From positions 1 to 41,399 of IMG/VR virus record IMGVR_UViG_3300032007_000176: DNA of 41,399 nt. One strand, given 5' to 3'. Each line of letters opens with the position of its first letter. Position 1 is the stretch's first letter. A program made the translations under genes and the position numbers. The notes beneath the pieces were generated by a model. That model saw nothing but the letters and a program-made list of their open reading frames with translations, had not been told where the DNA came from and searched no databases. The DNA comes from a virus. This document shows positions 1 through 41,399 of the stretch, piece by piece.

Positions 1-317
1 TGCCCTGGATGATGTACTTGCCGTCGAACGGGTGCCTGTCGTAGATGCTTGCGGCAATGGCCGTCAGCAGCTTCTGCTCATGCGTCGGGGGCACACCACG
101 AAAAATTCCGTTATCACCACATCTCACCCCATGCTGCTGATTGGCAGCCAGGTGAATGTCTTGCGGCACGATGAGCGCACGCGTCTCGATGCCCTCACCG
201 GCAATGCGGCTCACGATGGCCTCGATGTCCTCCGCGCTGATCCGCTCGCTCGTTTCCACTTGGATGTTGCACTCGCCGTGACCGATGAGCACCTCACAGG
301 CCACCTTCGGGTTGGCT
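1..317. repeat. Terminal direct repeat, copy 1 of 2 (identical to 41083..41399)
   Basis: Bases 1-317 match 41083-41399 letter for letter in the same orientation. The repeat lies inside one gene, so it is most simply the overlap of a circular or concatemeric assembly. Unique length is 41082 bp. Confidence 0.9.
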
Positions 318-19107: not shown

Positions 19108-20604
19108 TTACTTTCCTTTTTTATTCGCGCGTTTTTTGGCTGTGGGCTTACTTTCCGTCTCGAACGGGATTTCAATCTTGTCGCGCGTAACCTTTAGCGG
19201 GAACTCGTAGGCGTTCGGGAATTTCCAGTCAATCCATGCCGAATTGATGCGCTCGGCAAACTGACCGCCCACGCGGATTTCGTGGGTGAGGGTAAAGAAT
19301 GGCTGTTCGCCGATGTGGTATGCCTTGGGGTTTTCGGTCACGCGCTTCACGATGTCGCCACCGATGCGCTTCAGATATTCTTGCGCAACATCCCACATGA
19401 CGGCCAGCATTTCTTTCCAATCTTCGGTGCGCATGATGCTCAGCGTGCCTAATCGCATTTGTTTGCTTTCGAGCGACTTGTTCCATGCCTTTGCAAAGTC
19501 GGGATATTTATCGTTTATGATCTGCGTGCAGATGTCAAGGTCTTCGGGGTTGCCCCAAGTTGCATATTGTTCGCGCATGGTCATCTGCAGGTCGGCGGGC
19601 TTCGTCGTGATGGCTCCGCGTTCCTCGATGAGTTTCCCTATGTTTGGCACTGCATCCATAAAGCCGAAATAGCGGCGATAGTGGCAGAAGCCGATATACT
19701 TTGGTAACGTCTTCCTTTCGCTCACTTTTTTCATCTGCCACAGCTCGGAATAGTAGAGGTCAGGCACCTTGCATCCCTTCAACTTGCGGCTGTCGATGGT
19801 TTCATATACTTCGTTTTGCACAACCGGCTCAAAGTCGGTATGTGAGCAAATGAATATCTTTGCGTCCGAGTTGTCCTCCGGCTTCCAGTACGCTTCGTTC
19901 TTGCTGAGCCATTCGACCTGCTGTTCGATGTCGTTGCCGCGCCACGAGCCACCGCAATAGTGGATGTAATACTTGTCAATGTCCGGGTAGAGGCGCGCCG
20001 TCAGTTGCGGCTTCGTCTTGATGATGTCCTCCAAGAGTGTCGCACCCGTGTCGTACCAGTTATTGGGGTTATTCATACCCCCTGGCTGTAATGCCCAGCA
20101 TCGCTCTGGGTCATAATACCTTGCGCCGTTTTTGACAAGCAGTGGAACGTTTATATAGCACAGGAACGGCAGCAGTCTGTCCTTTTCGATGCAACGACCA
20201 CGGAACCACTGCACCTTTCCTACTGCTGCGAATTCTTCTTGCCACATGAAGCCGATGTCGTCCTTCAGCAAGATGTCCGACTCCATAAGAATAAAGCCAC
20301 CGGGCAAGAGCTCCCACAGCTTCTGCACACTCATTATGTGCTTTGCGCTGCCGTAGTTGCTCTTTTTTGCCAAATCCCAGCACTTGTTTGGGAATTTTGC
20401 CAGCTCGGCCTCAAAGTCGATGTATTTACCTTTGGTGTTGTCGATGACTTTCACACCTTGCATCTTCGCCTTGAACGGACGCTTGTCCGAATTGTCGAAC
20501 ACCGTTACGTCATAGCGCGTTCCTGTATGCTTGCGCAGGCTCAGGATGGCCGCCTCTGTCAGCTCGGGCGTGTTGTAGTGTACGATTGCGATTTGTTTCT
20601 TCAT
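19108..20604 (-). CDS. Two-domain glycosyltransferase (GT2-like N domain plus DUF4422-like C domain)
   Basis: The N domain has IAIVHYNTPELTEAAILSLRKH...VTVFDNSD and an acidic ILMESDILL motif. The C domain has IFICSHTDFEPV and FCHYRRYF, the HYRRY signature of DUF4422. Confidence 0.7.
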   Translation of the reverse strand: MKKQIAIVHYNTPELTEAAILSLRKHTGTRYDVTVFDNSDKRPFKAKMQGVKVIDNTKGKYIDFEAELAKFPNKCWDLAKKSNYGSAKHIMSVQKLWELLPGGFILMESDILLKDDIGFMWQEEFAAVGKVQWFRGRCIEKDRLLPFLCYINVPLLVKNGARYYDPERCWALQPGGMNNPNNWYDTGATLLEDIIKTKPQLTARLYPDIDKYYIHYCGGSWRGNDIEQQVEWLSKNEAYWKPEDNSDAKIFICSHTDFEPVVQNEVYETIDSRKLKGCKVPDLYYSELWQMKKVSERKTLPKYIGFCHYRRYFGFMDAVPNIGKLIEERGAITTKPADLQMTMREQYATWGNPEDLDICTQIINDKYPDFAKAWNKSLESKQMRLGTLSIMRTEDWKEMLAVMWDVAQEYLKRIGGDIVKRVTENPKAYHIGEQPFFTLTHEIRVGGQFAERINSAWIDWKFPNAYEFPLKVTRDKIEIPFETESKPTAKKRANKKGK

Positions 20605-26363: not shown

Positions 26364-26395
26364 CTTGCACATATCGCCGAAAAGCCGTAACTTTG
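26364..26395 (+). promoter_or_regulatory. Bacteroidota-type promoter of the lipoprotein moron
   Basis: The -7 box TAACTTTG (26388-26395) matches TAnnTTTG exactly. A -33-like CTTG lies at 26364-26367 with a 20-nt spacer. The ATG follows 27 nt after the box. Confidence 0.6.
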
Positions 26396-26421
26396 CGGCT
26401 CACAAACACAAAAAAAACGTT

Positions 26422-27288
26422 ATGAAAAAACTCATCTTGGCAGTGGCGGCCTGCCTTTCTCTTGCCGCATGCACGCAGAATGAGCTCGGCAGCGAGCCGC
26501 AGCAAATCAAAACAAAGAAGTTCACGTTCACGCTGAAGGGCGACTTCTCCGACCAGTGGAAACCCGTCACACGCGGCTACCTATCGGCCGACGGCAAGGA
26601 CCTCACCGACGTGTGGGTGCTCGACTATGACGCGGACGGGAACCTCTTGCAACAGCTACACCAGGCAGACGCGACGGCTGACGACTTCGGCCGGCCGGTG
26701 ATGCAACTTGCCTACGGTCAGCACCGTGTCTATTTCGTGGCCTCGCGCGGTCTTTCGCCAGTGCTCGACACCTCAGCAAAGACACTGACATTCGGCTCCG
26801 TGCGCGACACGTTTTGGAAGCGTTACGACGTGACGGTGGTGGCAACCTCCAACGGCAACCGCGCCGTGACGCTCGACCGCCTTGTCACGAAGCTACGCCT
26901 GACGTTCACTGACGAGATACCAGCTGAGGCAGCCACTATCCTGCTGACGCCCGCGACGTGGTACTACGGCCTCGACTACACGACCGGGCAACCCGTGAGC
27001 GAGACGGCGAACCGCACGACGGAAATCAGCATCCCAGATGCGAACAAGGGACAGACGGGCGCGCAGGCCAGCATCTTCGGCTTCTCCACCGCCGACGAGT
27101 GGACCACCGACGTAGCGATCAGCAGCAAAACGGCCAGCGGCGAAGTGCTCGGCTCTACCACCCTCTCGGCAGTTCCTTTCAAGTCCAACCGCGTCACCGA
27201 CTTCTCCGGCCCACTTTTTAGTGCTGGCGGTAGCATGTCGCTATCGCTGAATGGTGAATGGGAGGATAGTTACCATGGATCATGGTAG
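26422..27288 (+). CDS. Lipoprotein, Mfa2/FimB-like fimbrillin family (moron)
   Basis: Trimmed to MKKLILAVAACLSLAAC, a signal peptide with a lipobox Cys. DLTDVWVLDYD, RDTFWKRYD and LDRLVTKLRLTF resemble Bacteroidales fimbrial anchor subunits. The gene is on the opposite strand to all its neighbours. Confidence 0.65.
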   Translation: MKKLILAVAACLSLAACTQNELGSEPQQIKTKKFTFTLKGDFSDQWKPVTRGYLSADGKDLTDVWVLDYDADGNLLQQLHQADATADDFGRPVMQLAYGQHRVYFVASRGLSPVLDTSAKTLTFGSVRDTFWKRYDVTVVATSNGNRAVTLDRLVTKLRLTFTDEIPAEAATILLTPATWYYGLDYTTGQPVSETANRTTEISIPDANKGQTGAQASIFGFSTADEWTTDVAISSKTASGEVLGSTTLSAVPFKSNRVTDFSGPLFSAGGSMSLSLNGEWEDSYHGSW

Positions 27289-27289
27289 A

Positions 27290-27330
27290 AAAAATAAGGA
27301 GCCTCACGAACGGGGCTCCTTATTTTTATT
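27290..27330. terminator. Bidirectional intrinsic terminator between convergent genes
   Basis: AAGGAGCC (27296-27303) pairs with GGCTCCTT (27314-27321). ATTTTTATT lies on the plus side and an A-run (a T-run on the minus strand) on the other side. Confidence 0.7.
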
Positions 27331-27583
27331 CTCCACCTTCAGGTATAGGAGGCTCTTCCGGCTCCGGCTCGATAGCCCTCAGTCGCTCAATTTCTGCGTT
27401 GGCCGCATTGATGTCGTCGCGCCACTGCTGACGCTCGGCTATCTTGTCGGCATATTCCGTCTTGGTGGCCTTACCTTCCGCAATCTTGGCGGCGATATAA
27501 TCGGTGGATGACAGTTTGCCCTCGCGGTCGAGGATGATACTCTCCTGGGCGTTGATAGCCTCGTTGATTTCTGCTTGTTTCAT
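27326..27583 (-). CDS. Hypothetical coiled-coil protein
   Basis: 85-aa ORF that overlaps the RT stop by 4 nt. Confidence 0.5.
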   Translation of the reverse strand: MKQAEINEAINAQESIILDREGKLSSTDYIAAKIAEGKATKTEYADKIAERQQWRDDINAANAEIERLRAIEPEPEEPPIPEGGE

Positions 27584-28815
27584 ATTCGCTTCAATTTTAG
27601 TTTGTACTTCTTACATAATCTCTGGCGAAATGTGTGCTGGGGTTTACTGACGACGCATTGACGGCGGGTGTCCCAGTCCAACCACTGCCACCAATCATCA
27701 GCGATAGTGTCTTTCAGTTGCATGATACGCTTGTATGATGTGCGGTTCTTCAGTAGTCCTGTGTATGAGTTTACGGTCGAAATAAAACGGTCGAGTTCTC
27801 TGTATTTCTCGACCGTTGTCAGTTGGTTGTATTCTTTTATTCTCGCCAAACATCGTGCCCACGTTACATCATTCAATATCACGCTCCAGGGATGGATGTG
27901 CGAGCCGAGAAATTCCAGTCCCTTCCAGTGTTGCTGACAATAGAATTTCTTATCATTCATCCTTACGCCTTTTACAGCCAGTCTTCTGCGCAGTTCAGGC
28001 AACAGACTGAGTGCATAAGGCTTCAATCTATCGGGTACCACCATCACGCCATCGTCCATGAATACCGTGGTACGGATACCGCAATCTTCGTTGAGCCAAA
28101 TAACTTCGTCATTAATGTATAGACCCATGCCTGTTTGCGATGACATACGACCAATCGGCACACCTACGCCATCGGGTTTGTTCAGAATAGACTTTTCGGG
28201 TTTGATATGCGCATCCCAAAGATACTTGGGTGTGCGCCTCTCATAGTGCTTTGCAGGGTAACAATGAATTGCTATCATTGCCAGCCATTTCAGGAACGCC
28301 GGCATGAATACTCCATATTTTTCGGCTATCTCATCATGGAAGCGGTCTATCACGCGAATGAAGCACGACTCCATATAGTCGCAGTCGGCATTCGGGAAGA
28401 ATCCCGCCAAGTCCCACTTGATAATCCATGTCGTTTCGGTGTAGCCGTTGCTCACCTCGCAGATGTCTTCTATCACCTGGTTAATAGCTGCCTGCGAACC
28501 CATACCCTCGCGGTTGTTGAAGGTGCGCGGGTGTAGCGTCTGTTCTATCCACGGCTTCAGAATGTCACAAAGGATATGGTCAATCATACGACCGGCGAAC
28601 TCAGTGGCGAATATCTCGCGCCACTTAGGAATGGAAACGAGGAAGGTGTAGTTGTGGAGTATGCGGAACGTCCTTGCATTGAGCTCGCGCATCAAGCGAA
28701 CAAGTAGTGGTGGCCAGTTCATCTCAAAGGCCATCGAATCACGCCCGTAACGCTTGTTTTTCCGCGTGGAAAACATCACGCTGAGCAACAGCGCGAAGAA
28801 CAAAACCTCAGTCAT
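27580..28815 (-). CDS. DGR reverse transcriptase
   Basis: IPKWREIFATEFAGRMIDHIL, the PIGRMSSQ (IGxxxSQ) motif typical of DGR RTs, and an FMDD catalytic box. The gene starts 23 nt after the TR. The exact start Met is uncertain. Confidence 0.9.
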   Translation of the reverse strand: MTEVLFFALLLSVMFSTRKNKRYGRDSMAFEMNWPPLLVRLMRELNARTFRILHNYTFLVSIPKWREIFATEFAGRMIDHILCDILKPWIEQTLHPRTFNNREGMGSQAAINQVIEDICEVSNGYTETTWIIKWDLAGFFPNADCDYMESCFIRVIDRFHDEIAEKYGVFMPAFLKWLAMIAIHCYPAKHYERRTPKYLWDAHIKPEKSILNKPDGVGVPIGRMSSQTGMGLYINDEVIWLNEDCGIRTTVFMDDGVMVVPDRLKPYALSLLPELRRRLAVKGVRMNDKKFYCQQHWKGLEFLGSHIHPWSVILNDVTWARCLARIKEYNQLTTVEKYRELDRFISTVNSYTGLLKNRTSYKRIMQLKDTIADDWWQWLDWDTRRQCVVSKPQHTFRQRLCKKYKLKLKRI

Positions 28816-28837
28816 AAAAGTAAAAGCTAAATATCGA

Positions 28838-28964
28838 TAAAATCGCGACCGCCTGACAACGATTCGTGTTGTTGATGTTGTTGTTGTTGAGATTGCCGTT
28901 GTTGCCGTTGAAATTCCACGCGTTGTTGACGTTGTACCTCTGAGCGAACCAACGGTTCGTGCTG
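28838..28964 (-). repeat. DGR template repeat (TR)
   Basis: It aligns without gaps to 29545-29671 over 127 bp. All 27 differences fall at TR adenines on the coding strand. In the VR frame it encodes about 16 AAY codons. Confidence 0.9.
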
Positions 28965-29046
28965 GTCGGAGTCACATCTGATGCTGCTATACATGATAGC
29001 CGGGCTCCCTTTTACCTTATTCATATCTGACAGCCACCTCTTGTCA

Positions 29047-29460
29047 TTACTGACCGACCTGCGGCTGATCCTGACGTTTAAGCGACCGGCTCGCATTTCT
29101 CCATTTCCTTACACCTTCCTCGACACGTTCCAACTGCACGGCGATACGCAGTTTATCGCTATCAGTCAGCAGTCCCTGCGCGATACACAATTCAAAGTTA
29201 GCTAACAATATACCGAACTCACCTATCATCTCACGGATGTGTTCCTGCCTCGCCTCCTGGCATTCCTTGGCGATAGAGAAATGTCGGATGATATTCTGTA
29301 CCGCCCGCTTCATCTCTACCGGTGCGCCTTCGATGCGTTCTATCTTCGGCATCCGTTGGATGGCGGGATGTAATATATAAAGCAAGTTCTTTGCGTCAGC
29401 GAGAATGGAGTCCTTGTCATTCTTCGCCTTGTTGCCGCGCGGTTTCTTGTGTTCATTCAT
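29047..29460 (-). CDS. avd: Avd-like DGR accessory protein
   Basis: Trimmed to MNEHKKPRGNK. 137 aa, basic and predicted helical. It sits between the target gene and the TR. Confidence 0.7.
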   Translation of the reverse strand: MNEHKKPRGNKAKNDKDSILADAKNLLYILHPAIQRMPKIERIEGAPVEMKRAVQNIIRHFSIAKECQEARQEHIREMIGEFGILLANFELCIAQGLLTDSDKLRIAVQLERVEEGVRKWRNASRSLKRQDQPQVGQ

Positions 29461-29491
29461 TGTTCTAAAGAAGGATAGATTGATAGTAAGC

Positions 29492-29520
29492 CTCACGCCA
29501 CGCTGTCGCGATGGCGTGAG
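29492..29520 (-). promoter_or_regulatory. Hairpin/cruciform immediately 3' of the VR
   Basis: A perfect 9-bp inverted repeat (CTCACGCCA with TGGCGTGAG) and an 11-nt loop. It starts 13 nt after the target stop codon. No U-tract follows and there is no counterpart after the TR. Confidence 0.55.
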
Positions 29521-29532
29521 AGCATTTAGTTT

Positions 29533-30852
29533 CTAATCAATTTCTAAAAGCGCGACCGCCCGACAACGAAACGTGCCGGAGATGTAGCTGGTGCTGAGAG
29601 AGCCGTAGGAGCCGCGGAAAAACCACGCGGCGTAGACGGTGGACCTCTGAGCGAACCAACGGTACGTGCTGTTGTTCACTGCGGTAGTTCCCATCTTACT
29701 GATACTTGGCGCAAGGGCAGTGAGGGTTTCATCCTTCATCAGCATGGTGCCCTCGGCGACGCCTGGCAGATACCAGTCACCAAAGTCGAGACCATCCACA
29801 CCGAACGACTTGGTGTAGCCGTAATAGAGTGCTGGGTACTTGTACTTCGTGCCGCCTGCCTTAGTGGGAGCCGTCATGCGGGCATATTTCTCAGCCATAG
29901 CCTTGCCGCTGGGCAGTGAGAAGCATCCATACTTCTGAGGATATACCACCATGTAACACTTCTCCAGATATTCCTCGTAGGTGGCATAAGCAGCACGCAG
30001 GTTGGCGCAGAACTCGCTTGTCTCGAACTCTGACGGCTTCACGGGCACATCATTACCGGCACGTGGACCTACGGGTTCTTGCGCTGTTGGCACACGACCG
30101 CTACCTGTAGCCCATGCCTTGGTTCTGGCGATGTTCATCACACCCCAGTAGTTGGTGTAGCAGCCTCGCTCGCCGCGCCAGTACGTCGAATTTTCTGGCA
30201 TGTCACCCCATGTGATATGAGCGATAGTGCAACCTGTTGCGCTGACAATATAGAAGCGATAGTCAACACACTGATCACACTGGATGATAATCTGAGTACC
30301 GTCACTCTCCACTTTGTTTCCGTTGGCATCAGCCAGATATGCCCACCATGCCTTTATGTCGCCTACCTGCGTGGCCTTCGCAGCAACAGCGGCTGAAATT
30401 TCAGCAGCGCTTGTGGCGTTGATGGCAGCTGACGTCAGTGTTACATCTACGGTGGTATCTACGGCATAGTCAGGAGACATACGCAACTTAATAGCCAGTG
30501 TGGTGCTGCTGATAGCAGTAATGGCATACTGACAAACGTCGAGCCACTTCTGGTCGGCACCATCCTTGTGGATAATACCCACCTGTCGACCCTTACGGAA
30601 ATAGACATAACCGACGTGCGTCCATGCAGCGGGGATGTTTGCCTTCTGAATCCACACACCACCCTTCACGTAGATGATCTTGTTCTGGTCGTCAAGGAAC
30701 ACCACATCGCCAACGGTAGGCTGTGTGGTAACGACATTCACACCGTCCACGATGATTTCGCGGGTTGTCTCAATCATGCTCACCTGACTCTCGGTGATGG
30801 GCTTCACGGCTGCATCGTAGTCAGCCTTGCTGTTGTATGATTTGATAGCCAT
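29533..30852 (-). CDS. DGR target protein, putative receptor-binding tail protein
   Basis: 439 aa. The C-terminal ~42 codons are the VR (...STYRWFAQRSTVYAAWFFRGSYGSLSTSYISGTFRCRAVALLEID). The gene directly follows two fibre-like genes. Confidence 0.85.
   Translation of the reverse strand: MAIKSYNSKADYDAAVKPITESQVSMIETTREIIVDGVNVVTTQPTVGDVVFLDDQNKIIYVKGGVWIQKANIPAAWTHVGYVYFRKGRQVGIIHKDGADQKWLDVCQYAITAISSTTLAIKLRMSPDYAVDTTVDVTLTSAAINATSAAEISAAVAAKATQVGDIKAWWAYLADANGNKVESDGTQIIIQCDQCVDYRFYIVSATGCTIAHITWGDMPENSTYWRGERGCYTNYWGVMNIARTKAWATGSGRVPTAQEPVGPRAGNDVPVKPSEFETSEFCANLRAAYATYEEYLEKCYMVVYPQKYGCFSLPSGKAMAEKYARMTAPTKAGGTKYKYPALYYGYTKSFGVDGLDFGDWYLPGVAEGTMLMKDETLTALAPSISKMGTTAVNNSTYRWFAQRSTVYAAWFFRGSYGSLSTSYISGTFRCRAVALLEID
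29545..29671 (-). repeat. DGR variable repeat (VR)
   Basis: See the TR entry. The VR lies inside the 3' end of ORF 29533..30852. Confidence 0.9.
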
Positions 30853-30873
30853 AACTTTATCCTTTCTTTGTTA

Positions 30874-32547
30874 TTAATTCAACAATACCCAGTCACTGAC
30901 GGAATTTGTCACGCTGAATGCCTTGTAACACTTCTTGTTGGTTATATCCAGGTATTCCTGACCGACCATTGTGGGAACGTTTGGAGAGGCTGGCGCACCT
31001 TCACCGGTAAGGTGCATGTCCTGTCCGCACAGCTTCGGCTGTTCCTCGAAGTCGATACTTACAGCCTTGGTATTTCCGAGATTCTCCAGTTGTGCCTTCA
31101 GTCCGTCAATAGCAGCGAAGAGTACGGCGAAAGCCTGTGCCAACACCGACTGTCCTGGAGCACCGACGAAGTTGGTGGTGATATTCTTGAAGATACCCCA
31201 GCCGACTACCAATGCCGTACCTCCGCTGACAGTGGCAGTCAGTCCAGAAACGACTACCGTCATGGCTGTAGGACTCAGATAGATGTAGTAGCCTGTCGAT
31301 GGCATAGCACTCACAGCCTGACGTACCAGTGGCTCGTAGAACTGCTCACTCACCTCACGGGTGGCAGGTAGTGTGGTGTAGGTCTGTCCGGCTCTCGTCC
31401 ATCCTGTCAGCACGGGTGTGTCTCCACTCTCGTCATATACGGCGGTATAGACTAACGTCGAGTCGTAGTCAGCCGTAGCCGTTGCAGGCAGTTCAGGGTA
31501 GTCCTCGCGGTATGTGTAGATGTAGGCAATCACCTTCTGATAAGTGCGGTCCACCATTCGTGCCACCACGCTCACCGATGCCGGTACAGCCTGTGCACTC
31601 GGAATGAGCAGGATGTCGCCGGCGTTCAGTGTGATTGGTGCGCTGATGCCATAGCCGCTGGCAGATGTCTCGCCTCCGTCGGTGTTCACGTATTTATCAG
31701 CTTTCGCCTGCTGGAGCGTGATTTCACGCTCACCGTCGTACTTGCCGAACGATTTGTTGATGAATGCTACGAGGTCCTGAAGGTTGGTGATGTCAGCCAC
31801 CTTTGCGTCCACAATAGCGTCGCGCTGTTGCTCGTGCTCGTTGAAGGTGGTGTTACGTGCTGCCTCTGCCTGCTCGTAGGCTTCCTGACGTGCTGCCTGA
31901 CTCTGTACAAAGGTCTGCTGACGCTCCGCCTCCTTGGTCTCACGCTGCTGCTCCTGGTTGATGCGGGTTTGTTCGTTAGCGATGCGCTGCTGTTCAGCGG
32001 CATTGCGGTTGATTTCTGCTGATGCCCGTGCGTCTTCGGCATTTGTACGAAGCGTTTCAGCCAGTACACGAGCTTGCTCTGCTGTGACGCGGGCACTCTC
32101 GGCACTCACGCGACCTTGCTCAGCCGTAATACGCTGTTGCTCCTTGGTCTCGCGCTGACTTTCCTTCGTCACGCGCTGCTGCTCGGCACTGATGCGAGCC
32201 TGCTCTGCTTCGTTGCGCTGGTTCTCGGCTGCCATGCGCTCTGCCTCCTTCTGCTGGCGCAGTTCTTCGGCTGCCACACGCAAGGCTTCATCATTGGCAA
32301 TGGCATCGTTGAGGGCCTTGATGCGGTCGCTCTCGGCCTTAATAGATGAAAGGTCAATAATGCGGAACCACCATGCGCTGTCGCTGACGGGATGGCCTAC
32401 GTTGCCGCTCTTCAGCGAGCGATAGATGCTCAGGCCAGTAGCGTCTTGCACCACGTTGGCTAGTCCGTAGGCTGTGCTGGAAGAATAGACACCCTTCCAT
32501 GCTTCACCCACCTGGAACTTCAATTCTTGGATGTTTTCGTTTTCCAT
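30874..32547 (-). CDS. Tail fibre protein with a long repetitive coiled coil
   Basis: 557 aa. Degenerate repeats run AEQARISAEQQRVTKESQRETKEQQRITAEQGRVSAESARVTAEQARV. Confidence 0.65.
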   Translation of the reverse strand: MENENIQELKFQVGEAWKGVYSSSTAYGLANVVQDATGLSIYRSLKSGNVGHPVSDSAWWFRIIDLSSIKAESDRIKALNDAIANDEALRVAAEELRQQKEAERMAAENQRNEAEQARISAEQQRVTKESQRETKEQQRITAEQGRVSAESARVTAEQARVLAETLRTNAEDARASAEINRNAAEQQRIANEQTRINQEQQRETKEAERQQTFVQSQAARQEAYEQAEAARNTTFNEHEQQRDAIVDAKVADITNLQDLVAFINKSFGKYDGEREITLQQAKADKYVNTDGGETSASGYGISAPITLNAGDILLIPSAQAVPASVSVVARMVDRTYQKVIAYIYTYREDYPELPATATADYDSTLVYTAVYDESGDTPVLTGWTRAGQTYTTLPATREVSEQFYEPLVRQAVSAMPSTGYYIYLSPTAMTVVVSGLTATVSGGTALVVGWGIFKNITTNFVGAPGQSVLAQAFAVLFAAIDGLKAQLENLGNTKAVSIDFEEQPKLCGQDMHLTGEGAPASPNVPTMVGQEYLDITNKKCYKAFSVTNSVSDWVLLN

Positions 32548-32567
32548 ATCTTTTCGTTTTTATTGGT

Positions 32568-33242
32568 TTACAATCTGATGATCAACTCAGCCGTTTCCTC
32601 GTCGTAAATGATGCGCTGCACCTCTTGCTGAAGTCCGCGCACGGTCAGGATGCCTGTCTCTGGGTTAAACGACATCGTAGGGAACAGCATGCCACCACTC
32701 GGACCTTCGGGGCCTTGTTCGCCCTGTTCTCCTTGCGGGCCTTGTTCACCCTGTGGGCCTTGCGGACCGACGGGGCCTTGTTCACCCTGCGGGCCTTGTG
32801 GACCGACGGGGCCTGGGTCGCCCTTGTCACCCTTCGTCCAGTACGGAGGTATCTCACTCGTTACGGTGGGAGCGGTGCAACCGTCGAAGCCCAGCACCAC
32901 GTTCATCTCCACTTCCACGCCATCCACCTCTTCCTTGATGATGACCGACGTTGGCTCAATCACCTCGTCACAGATGCCGCTCTGGTAATGCTCATCGGTG
33001 AGGTAGTAGCGACGCTCCACCATGAGCGTACCGACACCAAGCTTGTGGTCGTCAAAACCGACACACAACCTTCCGTCACCATCCACCTCGCAGTTCGTGT
33101 ACTCGTGGCCGTCAAAGGTAGCCACCCATGCTTGCTTGGGGTTCGCCGTGTAGTACGTGAACTTAAACGGCACCCCGAATCCGGCATCGCTCTGTTCTAC
33201 GAGCCGGAAATCACTCTGATAGAATATCTTCTTTGTTTCCAT
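32568..33242 (-). CDS. Collagen-like repeat tail fibre protein
   Basis: A Gly-X-Y run reads [48 protein letters not shown]. It is encoded partly by a 36-bp tandem duplication at 32737-32808. Confidence 0.7.
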
Positions 33243-40603: not shown

Positions 40604-41399
40604 TTATTCTTTCGGTCTAATTAAGCCCCATTCGCTGAAGGTTTCAAACGAGCCGTTGCAATCGGTCAAAATGTAAAGTCTTGCCATTTCCACCACGTCG
40701 GCAAACGTCTCGGTCTCGGTCTTGCCGCTGGCATATTGGAACGTCACATGTTCGTCACCAATCGAACAGCAAGCCGTCACCGTCTGCCCAGATTGCACAG
40801 CCTTCAGGAATGCGACGATATTGATAGAAACATCTCCCTTTGAGAGATCCTTTCCCATCAAGCCACCTCCTGTTACTCCCTCGCCAAGGTCGCTTCCAAG
40901 TTTCCTGTTAGTCGCTCCGCTGTCCGTGTTCGGTCCGCCCGTCCACTCGCCCAGGGGATTGATGATGGGCAGGTGGATGCCGTAGGCGTTCTTCAGATGC
41001 TCACGCAGTTCCGGTTCCTGCTCACGGCTCAGATGGCTTTGGCAGATGGTGACGTCGAACTCCGGCGCAGCCAGTCGGCCTTTGCCCTGGATGATGTACT
41101 TGCCGTCGAACGGGTGCCTGTCGTAGATGCTTGCGGCAATGGCCGTCAGCAGCTTCTGCTCATGCGTCGGGGGCACACCACGAAAAATTCCGTTATCACC
41201 ACATCTCACCCCATGCTGCTGATTGGCAGCCAGGTGAATGTCTTGCGGCACGATGAGCGCACGCGTCTCGATGCCCTCACCGGCAATGCGGCTCACGATG
41301 GCCTCGATGTCCTCCGCGCTGATCCGCTCGCTCGTTTCCACTTGGATGTTGCACTCGCCGTGACCGATGAGCACCTCACAGGCCACCTTCGGGTTGGCT
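40604..41399 (-). CDS. metK: S-adenosylmethionine synthetase (compact MetK-like), C-terminal part, continuing into 472..1
   Basis: INPLGEWTGGPNTDSGATNRKLGSDLGEGVTGGGLMGKDLSKGDVS parallels E. coli MetK [30 protein letters not shown]...GGGAFSGKDPSKVDRS. Confidence 0.8.
   Translation of the reverse strand, partial: ANPKVACEVLIGHGECNIQVETSERISAEDIEAIVSRIAGEGIETRALIVPQDIHLAANQQHGVRCGDNGIFRGVPPTHEQKLLTAIAASIYDRHPFDGKYIIQGKGRLAAPEFDVTICQSHLSREQEPELREHLKNAYGIHLPIINPLGEWTGGPNTDSGATNRKLGSDLGEGVTGGGLMGKDLSKGDVSINIVAFLKAVQSGQTVTACCSIGDEHVTFQYASGKTETETFADVVEMARLYILTDCNGSFETFSEWGLIRPKE
41083..41399. repeat. Terminal direct repeat, copy 2 of 2
   Basis: Identical to 1..317. Confidence 0.9.

Follow-up and report, generated by a model that had tools for sequence, protein, structure and literature searches.

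Here, we describe a diversity-generating retroelement (DGR) carried by a 41,399-nucleotide (nt) viral genome (IMG/VR record IMGVR_UViG_3300032007_000176, positions 1 to 41,399; this whole stretch of DNA is hereafter called the window). Judged from its sequence, the element is very probably a complete, intact cassette in which a target gene of 439 amino acids (aa; positions 29533 to 30852), an avd gene for a divergent accessory variability determinant of 137 aa (29047 to 29460), a template repeat (TR; 28838 to 28964) that is noncoding in function, and a gene for a reverse transcriptase (RT) of 411 aa (27580 to 28815) follow one another, all on the minus strand; we hold with equal confidence that this DGR is functional. 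This layout, in which the target lies upstream of avd-TR-RT, is the one found most often among DGRs (B1 in PMC5758913). The anatomy of the cassette, its adenine specificity, and a continued flow of sequence from the TR to the variable repeat (VR; 29545 to 29671, minus strand) at the 3′ end of the target gene were observed directly.

A repeat search followed by a base-by-base count aligned the TR and the VR without gaps over 127 nt (79% identical). When the minus (coding) strand is read, the TR base is an adenine at all 27 mismatches, which comprise 11 A>T, 9 A>C, and 7 A>G changes; with 42 A per 127 nt of TR, the hypergeometric P value for 27 of 27 mismatches on A is 3e-17. An earlier note on this DNA, which was made without database searches, had described a gapless 127-bp pair with 27 differences confined to coding-strand adenines, replacements to C, G, and T alike, and about 16 AAY codons in the TR. 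The recount reproduced this description exactly, including the translations of both repeats; the AAY codons number exactly 16 (13 AAC and 3 AAT) when the TR is read in the VR frame, and mismatches at non-adenine positions, which the note had named as one of the results that would speak against its reading, are zero at this locus.

The VR covers codons 395 to 436 of the 439 codons of the target and ends 9 nt before its TAG stop, and the part of it with adenine-templated substitutions (TR positions 8 to 111) spans 29561 to 29664 on the minus strand. In the frame of the target open reading frame (ORF), every one of the 27 mismatches lies at codon position 1 or 2, as do 41 of the 42 TR adenines, and none of the mutable TR codons has the potential to become a stop. 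The packing of TR adenines at positions 1 and 2 of AAY codons therefore permits residue change without stop creation. The approximately 40 mutable adenines correspond to ∼10^24 DNA variants and ∼10^23 protein variants, with ∼20 residues changeable. No second VR or second target was found in the 41,399-nt window.

For comparison, we assembled 16 loci, consisting of this window and 15 loci from viral, genome, and NCBI collections, each with its own TR/VR pair. Summed over the 16, the VR was mismatched at 322 of 634 TR-adenine sites (51%) versus 6 of 1366 other sites (0.4%), and the TRs were conserved among loci, while the VRs were all different. Between loci, 24 non-A columns of the TR vary, and 2078 of 2110 informative comparisons there (98.5%) found the VR in agreement with its own TR. 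Independent decay of two repeats cannot give a VR that tracks its own TR and is excluded on that ground; the tracking thus indicates that the TR was copied repeatedly into the VR after the related lineages split. At the protein level, column entropy over 120 homologous target proteins reached 2.5 to 3.2 bits at residues 397 to 428 only, and the closest target homologs differ at ∼7% of residues outside the VR and at ∼50% inside it. The suggestion in the earlier note that the element "has been active" is strongly supported by this comparison of repeats.

It could still be that the VR pattern records past DGR activity of the lineage and that the present copy no longer diversifies, and the closest public relatives, already ∼7% apart outside the VR, do not resolve recent turnover. 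We regard such a relic as very improbable. The ORFs are all intact, the catalytic FMDD and the SQ motif are present, and the TR, the initiation of mutagenic homing (IMH) sequence, the hairpin, and the RNA elements described below are all conserved under compensatory change. A decaying repeat pair would gather non-A mismatches, and this pair has none.

Two details of the repeats emerged from the same 16 loci. Repeat positions 1 and 2 carry non-A differences in most relatives, so we take the functional repeat to be ∼125 nt long. The adenine at TR position 26 (nt 28939; codon pair CAG AGG) is retained by the VR in 16 of 16 loci, though it lies inside the mutagenized span; presumably, purifying selection acts there on a scaffold arginine.

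The RT gene (27580 to 28815, minus strand) starts 22 nt after the TR, and its product matched Pfam RVT_1 (E value, 1.5e-9) and PHROG 1423 (4e-38). As the earlier note had stated for the ORFs of 439, 137, and 411 aa and for the RT motifs, all are present as described, with IGRMSSQ at 28135 to 28155 and FMDD at 28051 to 28062. When the RT was aligned with Brt of Bordetella phage BPP-1, GVGVPIGRMSSQ and FMDD fell in register with GVGIPIGSLTSQ and YMDD of Brt and with the RT of Bacteroides phage F2. In a tblastn search of 50,697 phage records, the only relatives were RTs of phages with DGRs, all below 30% identity (27 to 29% for Bacteroides phages F1, F2, and F4 and 24.5% for Bordetella phages BPP-1, BIP-1, and BMP-1). 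The sole match in a PDB sequence search was 8UB7, a 328-aa "Reverse transcriptase" of the same length as the brt product. On these relationships, we classify the enzyme as a DGR-type RT; the earlier note had proposed a profile search of the RT against the DGR, retron, and group II intron clades, and in the searches made here the only phage relatives were DGR RTs and the group II model stayed below its cutoff.

These results bear directly on whether the locus might be no DGR at all, that is, a chance or duplicated repeat beside an unrelated RT of a retron, a group II intron, or a defense system. Weak partial matches of the RT to generic RT, defense-system RT (DRT), and group II maturase models lean that way, although the maturase score was 32 bits against a cutoff of 300. 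The SQ motif, the restriction of sequence and structure relatives to Brt and DGR RTs, and an Rfam scan of 27000 to 31000 that detected no intron, retron, or other RNA family all point to a DGR instead. The adenine bias and the same TR/VR pattern found independently in 15 other loci effectively refute the alternative, to which we assign a negligible probability.

The 137-aa ORF (29047 to 29460, minus strand) is supported as a divergent Avd, with a weak direct signal and with profile bridging as its main support. It matched PHROG 3206 ("Avd protein of DGR") over its full length (E value, 1e-6) and NCBIfam DivGenRetAVD at an E value of 0.013. BLASTP and shallow hhalign comparisons with the Avd proteins of BPP-1 and F2 gave no match, and a homolog search returned unannotated close relatives only. 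In 55 of 59 related DGR loci (L046 to L104), an iterative profile search of the ORFs recovered exactly one such ORF, whose place upstream of the TR and RT never changed. When combined, these sequences align collinearly with the annotated bAvd of phage F2; 10 of the aligned members matched Pfam bAvd (E values down to 4.7e-36), and 11 matched NCBIfam DivGenRetAVD. Aligned with hhalign, the subgroup to which the window ORF belongs matched the canonical bAvd subgroup over 110 columns (probability, 84.6%; E value, 6.8e-6). The basic, Avd-like ORF of the earlier note, for which we computed a pI of 9.6, is borne out by the PHROG match and by this bridged alignment.

At their 3′ ends, the two repeats carry sequences that we identify by comparison as the IMH, which is the GC-rich end of the VR (GGCGGTCGCGCTTTTA; 29545 to 29560, minus strand), and the IMH* at the end of the TR (GGCGGTCGCGATTTTA; 28838 to 28853, minus strand). 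Mutagenesis is last seen at TR position 111; beyond it, starting at position 112, the sequence common to both repeats is GGCGGTCGCG, followed by C in the VR or A in the TR and then by TTTTA. This single difference (TR position 122; TR nt 28843, VR nt 29550; A>C) is 1 of the 27 counted above. Because it is identical in 16 of 16 related loci, we read it as a fixed IMH/IMH* difference and not as a product of mutagenesis. An IMH with a GC-rich start and a nonidentical IMH* that bound mutagenesis are described features of DGRs (PMC5758913).

Just after the target stop codon, 22 to 55 nt past the VR, lies a GC-rich hairpin or cruciform (29490 to 29523, minus strand) with 9-bp arms (29512 to 29520 and 29492 to 29500), an inner 3-bp stem, and a GACA loop. 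Its DNA fold has a z score of −4.85, and 12 of its 14 pairs show compensatory changes among 19 loci. A GC-rich inverted repeat after the IMH occurs in 34% of DGRs and is required for efficient homing in BPP-1 and Legionella (PMC5758913), and by analogy, the hairpin is a candidate for the corresponding target-site recognition element. A conserved hairpin immediately after a stop codon would also fit a role in RNA, either as a transcription terminator or as an mRNA-stabilizing stem of the target gene and nothing more, and the 34% figure leaves room for that. We consider this unlikely: the hairpin has no T-tract and was not flagged as terminator-like, the avd, TR, and RT that come next on the same strand would need read-through or a promoter of their own, and no equivalent hairpin occurs at the same distance after IMH*. 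The position after the IMH, the GC-rich stem, and the 4-nt loop match the homing element of BPP-1 and Legionella, which we prefer as the counterpart. VR-to-TR distances in the related loci fall mainly into two classes (∼701 to 707 nt and ∼763 to 803 nt, with one locus at 845 nt), because the segment that leads from the VR hairpin to the start of avd (29461 to 29532 in the window) is a different one in some loci (for example, L004, L006, and L010).

Around the TR, the avd-TR spacer is 82 nt long and the TR-RT spacer is 22 nt long, and a gap of ∼20 to 45 nt separates the TR 3′ end from the RT start in nearly all examined loci of the lineage, which reach as low as 50% RT identity. Covariation in 22 loci (50 to 93% RT identity) supports two RNA elements, both read on the minus strand. 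The first is a hairpin in the avd-TR spacer (GCUAU-CAUGU-AUAGC; 28986 to 29000) with 5 pairs, of which 4 are compensatory, that is 100% paired in the 22 loci. The second is a long-range duplex that encloses the TR: its 5′ strand, GGUAAA (29011 to 29016), is contained in the spacer segment GGUAAAAG (29009 to 29016), and its 3′ strand, UUUAUC (28836 to 28841), comprises the last 4 nt of the TR and 2 nt beyond. The duplex has 6 pairs (3 compensatory; 95% paired), extends to ∼12 bp among close relatives, and pairs the TR 3′ end with an invariant GUAAAAGG in the avd-TR spacer, upstream of the TR. Together, the hairpin and the duplex are 97.5% paired, versus 26 to 44% when the partner is slid, and their covariation score is 0.369, versus 0.173 in shuffles (0 of 500 shuffles reach it). 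A further hairpin inside the RT ORF (28758 to 28773) covaries among close relatives and is not conserved at 50 to 69% RT identity; it was dropped as a general element. A sigma-70 promoter scan was uninformative for Bacteroidales and was not used.

Avd-type DGRs have an Avd-binding stem-loop just downstream of the TR, a "cPRT Stop" duplex, and a TR:Sp primer duplex (Handa et al.; bioRxiv 10.1101/2023.10.23.563531), and in most of them, the "cPRT Stop" duplex pairs sequences upstream and downstream of the TR (bioRxiv 10.1101/2023.10.23.563531). By analogy, the upstream duplex of the window may correspond to "cPRT Stop," and we rank this above the second reading that the pairing may permit, in which the duplex is a template:primer duplex with its primer upstream. 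If that second reading were true, it would imply a permuted ribonucleoprotein topology not described for DGRs.

Directly behind the RT, an 85-aa ORF without an assigned function (27326 to 27583, minus strand) begins with an ATG that overlaps the RT stop (ATGA). Of 48 loci in the lineage with at least 49% RT identity, 41 have a homolog directly next to the RT, and none of the ∼30% group does; the identity of the homolog does not follow that of the RT (for example, 93% where the RT has 66%). No family match was found in Pfam, PHROG, NCBIfam, or defense-system models. The ORF could be a lineage-specific accessory gene or merely the next backbone gene. A joint proposal, in which this RT lineage arranges its DGR RNA differently from BPP-1, is cis-primed from an upstream adenosine, and uses the 85-aa product as a lineage-specific accessory factor, would accommodate these sequence features, but we regard it as doubtful.

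The target (29533 to 30852, minus strand) consists of an N-terminal region of ∼270 aa without an assigned fold and a C-terminal part of ∼110 to 170 aa that we describe as Lcl_C/DUF1566-like. It did not reach the threshold of Pfam Lcl_C/DUF1566 (PF07603), with no match at an E value of ≤0.01. The same model matched 4 of 59 close relatives (E value of at least 0.05) and 4 of 84 distant ones (best E value, 1.5e-5). PDB sequence and profile searches with the target gave no match, and with its C-terminal 135 aa as the query, a homolog search found nothing beyond fragments of its own family. That family comprises 547 clusters at 90% identity and, at 50%, 377 representatives. A full-length AlphaFold model was too poor to use (predicted local distance difference test score [pLDDT], 55), and Foldseek with that model was meaningless. 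Modeled with a diverse alignment, the last 170 residues reached a mean pLDDT of 89.4. The best Foldseek match of this model in the PDB was 8Q4E, the C-terminal domain of Legionella Lcl (probability, 0.99; E value, 0.02), followed by a Bacteroides fimbrial protein, Bd2740, and classical C-type lectins; in BFVD, it matched phage DUF1566 proteins and one annotated tail fiber (probability, 0.96 to 1.0; E value, 4e-4 to 7e-2; TMq, 0.4 to 0.5). In the model, the VR thus sits in a C-terminal domain with a C-type-lectin fold of the Lcl_C/DUF1566 kind, in agreement with the fold that the earlier note had predicted for this region. We call the domain Lcl_C-like and not a member of the family because the target itself fails the Pfam model.

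What the target does was judged from this domain and from its neighbors. The gene follows a connector gene, a collagen-repeat gene, and a gene for a 557-aa coiled-coil protein, and it lies five genes before a tape-measure-like gene. From this setting, it is probably a receptor- or ligand-binding virion protein, and a tail-fiber or receptor-binding role is plausible. The earlier note had placed it at a tail-fiber locus as a receptor-binding protein; the position in the virion module and the DUF1566/tail-fiber-like C-terminal domain favor that view, while the neighbors proved to match tail-fiber families via collagen repeats or coiled coil only. The DGR might thus be real and its target something else, either a different surface-exposed virion protein (a head or neck decoration or an adhesin) or a nonvirion protein. 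The quality of the neighbors' matches, the N-terminal ∼270 aa without an assignable fold, and the atypical gene order, in which the connector, the fiber-like genes, and the DGR precede the tape-measure-like gene and then the portal, protease, and major capsid protein genes, would all suit such a target. We give it a modest share of the probability, well below that of the receptor- or ligand-binding protein: the gene lies inside the virion module, downstream of the gp6-like connector and upstream of the tape-measure-like gene, the C-terminal half of the 557-aa neighbor is always directly upstream of the target in relatives, and phage DUF1566 proteins and an annotated tail fiber are among the structural matches. 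Surveys, moreover, find viral DGR targets to be mostly tail proteins (PMC8144416).

By analogy with BPP-1, the transcript of the avd-TR spacer, the TR, and the RT start would fold into a structured RNA, for which the covarying hairpin upstream of the TR and the covarying duplex between the spacer and the TR 3′ end are the features computed here. The RT and the basic Avd, whose biochemistry we infer from characterized systems, would copy the TR into cDNA with random bases opposite template adenines, and this cDNA would take the place of the homologous VR in the 3′-terminal part of the 439-aa gene. That the VR rather than the TR is the recipient would be signaled by two GC-rich features, the IMH and the hairpin 22 to 55 nt downstream. 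The expected outcome would be variation of ∼20 residues of the Lcl_C/DUF1566-like domain, with ∼10^23 possible proteins and no stops. The RT thus probably rewrites the tip of one virion protein and so varies what the phage binds.

Several points weigh against an intact DGR that acts on a virion protein. Direct Pfam and PDB searches with the Avd ORF gave no match. The spacers depart from those of BPP-1, with an avd-TR spacer of 82 nt here versus 0 nt and a TR-RT spacer of 22 nt here versus 144 nt. Among public relatives, a near-clonal sibling genome with a different VR was not found. The target matched no Pfam, PHROG, or NCBIfam model, its link to Lcl_C is transitive and structural with modest scores (TMq, 0.25 to 0.5), and its virion location and role are deduced from gene position and predicted fold.

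The cassette shares with BPP-1 (mtd-avd-TR-brt) its gene order and strand, the placement of the VR at the target's 3′ end, TR/VR differences confined strictly to adenines, a GC-rich IMH with a slightly different IMH*, a GC-rich inverted repeat after the IMH, an Avd, an RT with IGxxxSQ and xMDD motifs, and an AAY-rich TR. The RT, by contrast, has only 24.5% identity to Brt, exceeds it in length by 83 aa, and carries both a C-terminal extension and an insertion ahead of the SQ motif; the Avd is very divergent, and the target domain is Lcl_C/DUF1566-like and not Mtd-type. The RNA differs as well. In BPP-1, the priming Sp region lies downstream of the TR, and the 144-nt spacer before brt supplies the priming adenosine and protein-binding stem-loops (bioRxiv 10.1101/2023.10.23.563531), whereas the conserved RNA elements of the window lie upstream of the TR. 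Because the RNA layout differs, the priming site is not simply transferable from BPP-1.

Among isolated phages, the closest RTs are those of Bacteroides uniformis phages F1, F2, and F4 (PMC8143477), with 27 to 29% identity over 95% of the length. These phages share the RT insertion and C-terminal extension relative to Brt, a Bacteroidales host, and an avd upstream of the RT. They differ in their low identity, in an Avd of the canonical bAvd subgroup that Pfam recognizes, and in an extra small ORF annotated between avd and RT; there is no nucleotide similarity, and a megablast search of the cassette against 50,697 phage records gave no match. Among targets, the closest are those of the DUF1566/CLec2 type (category "d" of Wu et al.; Legionella LdtA): the modeled VR domain has its best structural match in the Legionella Lcl C-terminal domain (8Q4E) and in DUF1566 proteins, the VR is likewise at the extreme C terminus, and distant relatives of the window target match Pfam Lcl_C. 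The window target differs as a phage protein with an N-terminal region of ∼270 aa that is unassigned, not a cellular surface lipoprotein, and it fails the Pfam model.

Both DUF1566-type lectin-fold targets and DGRs of gut Bacteroidetes phages are well cataloged (PMC5758913, PMC8144416). The element is thus a DGR of known type that does not change the understanding of DGRs and adds a well-documented intact example from gut and rumen Bacteroidales phages. It is modestly interesting for its very divergent Avd, its unannotated target family, and its RNA elements upstream of the TR. The Avd escapes standard models, and the alignments could seed better profiles for this Avd subgroup and for the target family. 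Because the downstream spacer is almost absent, the lineage is also a natural test of the BPP-1 rules for TR-flanking RNA.

An exact 317-nt direct repeat at the two ends of the window (1 to 317 and 41083 to 41399) shows that it is a complete phage genome of ∼41.1 kb, either circularly assembled or terminally redundant. The genome encodes TerL, a primase, a major capsid protein (MCP), a prohead protease, a portal protein, a tape-measure-like protein, a gp6-like head-tail connector, and an M15 lysin, nearly all on the minus strand; tRNA genes, which might have served as an integration target, were not found in the window. By gene content and relatives, we assign it to the tailed phages of gut or rumen Bacteroidales. 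The relatives come from metagenome-assembled genomes of Paludibacteraceae, Prevotella, Alloprevotella, Bacteroidaceae, and other Bacteroidales, several of them from the gut or rumen of sheep, buffalo, and roe deer; two sit inside contigs of 110 and 270 kb, which suggests that these are prophages.

The gene order from 1395 to 34150 (minus strand) is unusual: lysin, head-tail connector, fiber-like genes, DGR, tape-measure-like gene, two large unknown proteins, portal, protease, MCP, replication genes, and TerL. The collagen-repeat and 557-aa coiled-coil genes (30874 to 33242, minus strand) are replaced by one 719-aa gene in the closest relative, L014 (7825 to 9984). The fiber-like genes are conserved across loci only in the C-terminal ∼100 to 300 aa next to the target, which suggests modular exchange of an N-terminal fiber shaft. 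The only sizeable opposite-strand gene near the DGR (26365 to 27288, plus strand) encodes a lipoprotein-like protein (MKKLILAVAACLSLAAC...) with no Pfam match. Seven related loci have this gene and others, among them L014, lack it, so it looks like a moron that entered between the DGR and the tail genes. Just upstream of the portal gene, positions 19108 to 20604 encode a protein of 498 aa that contains a DUF4422 domain.

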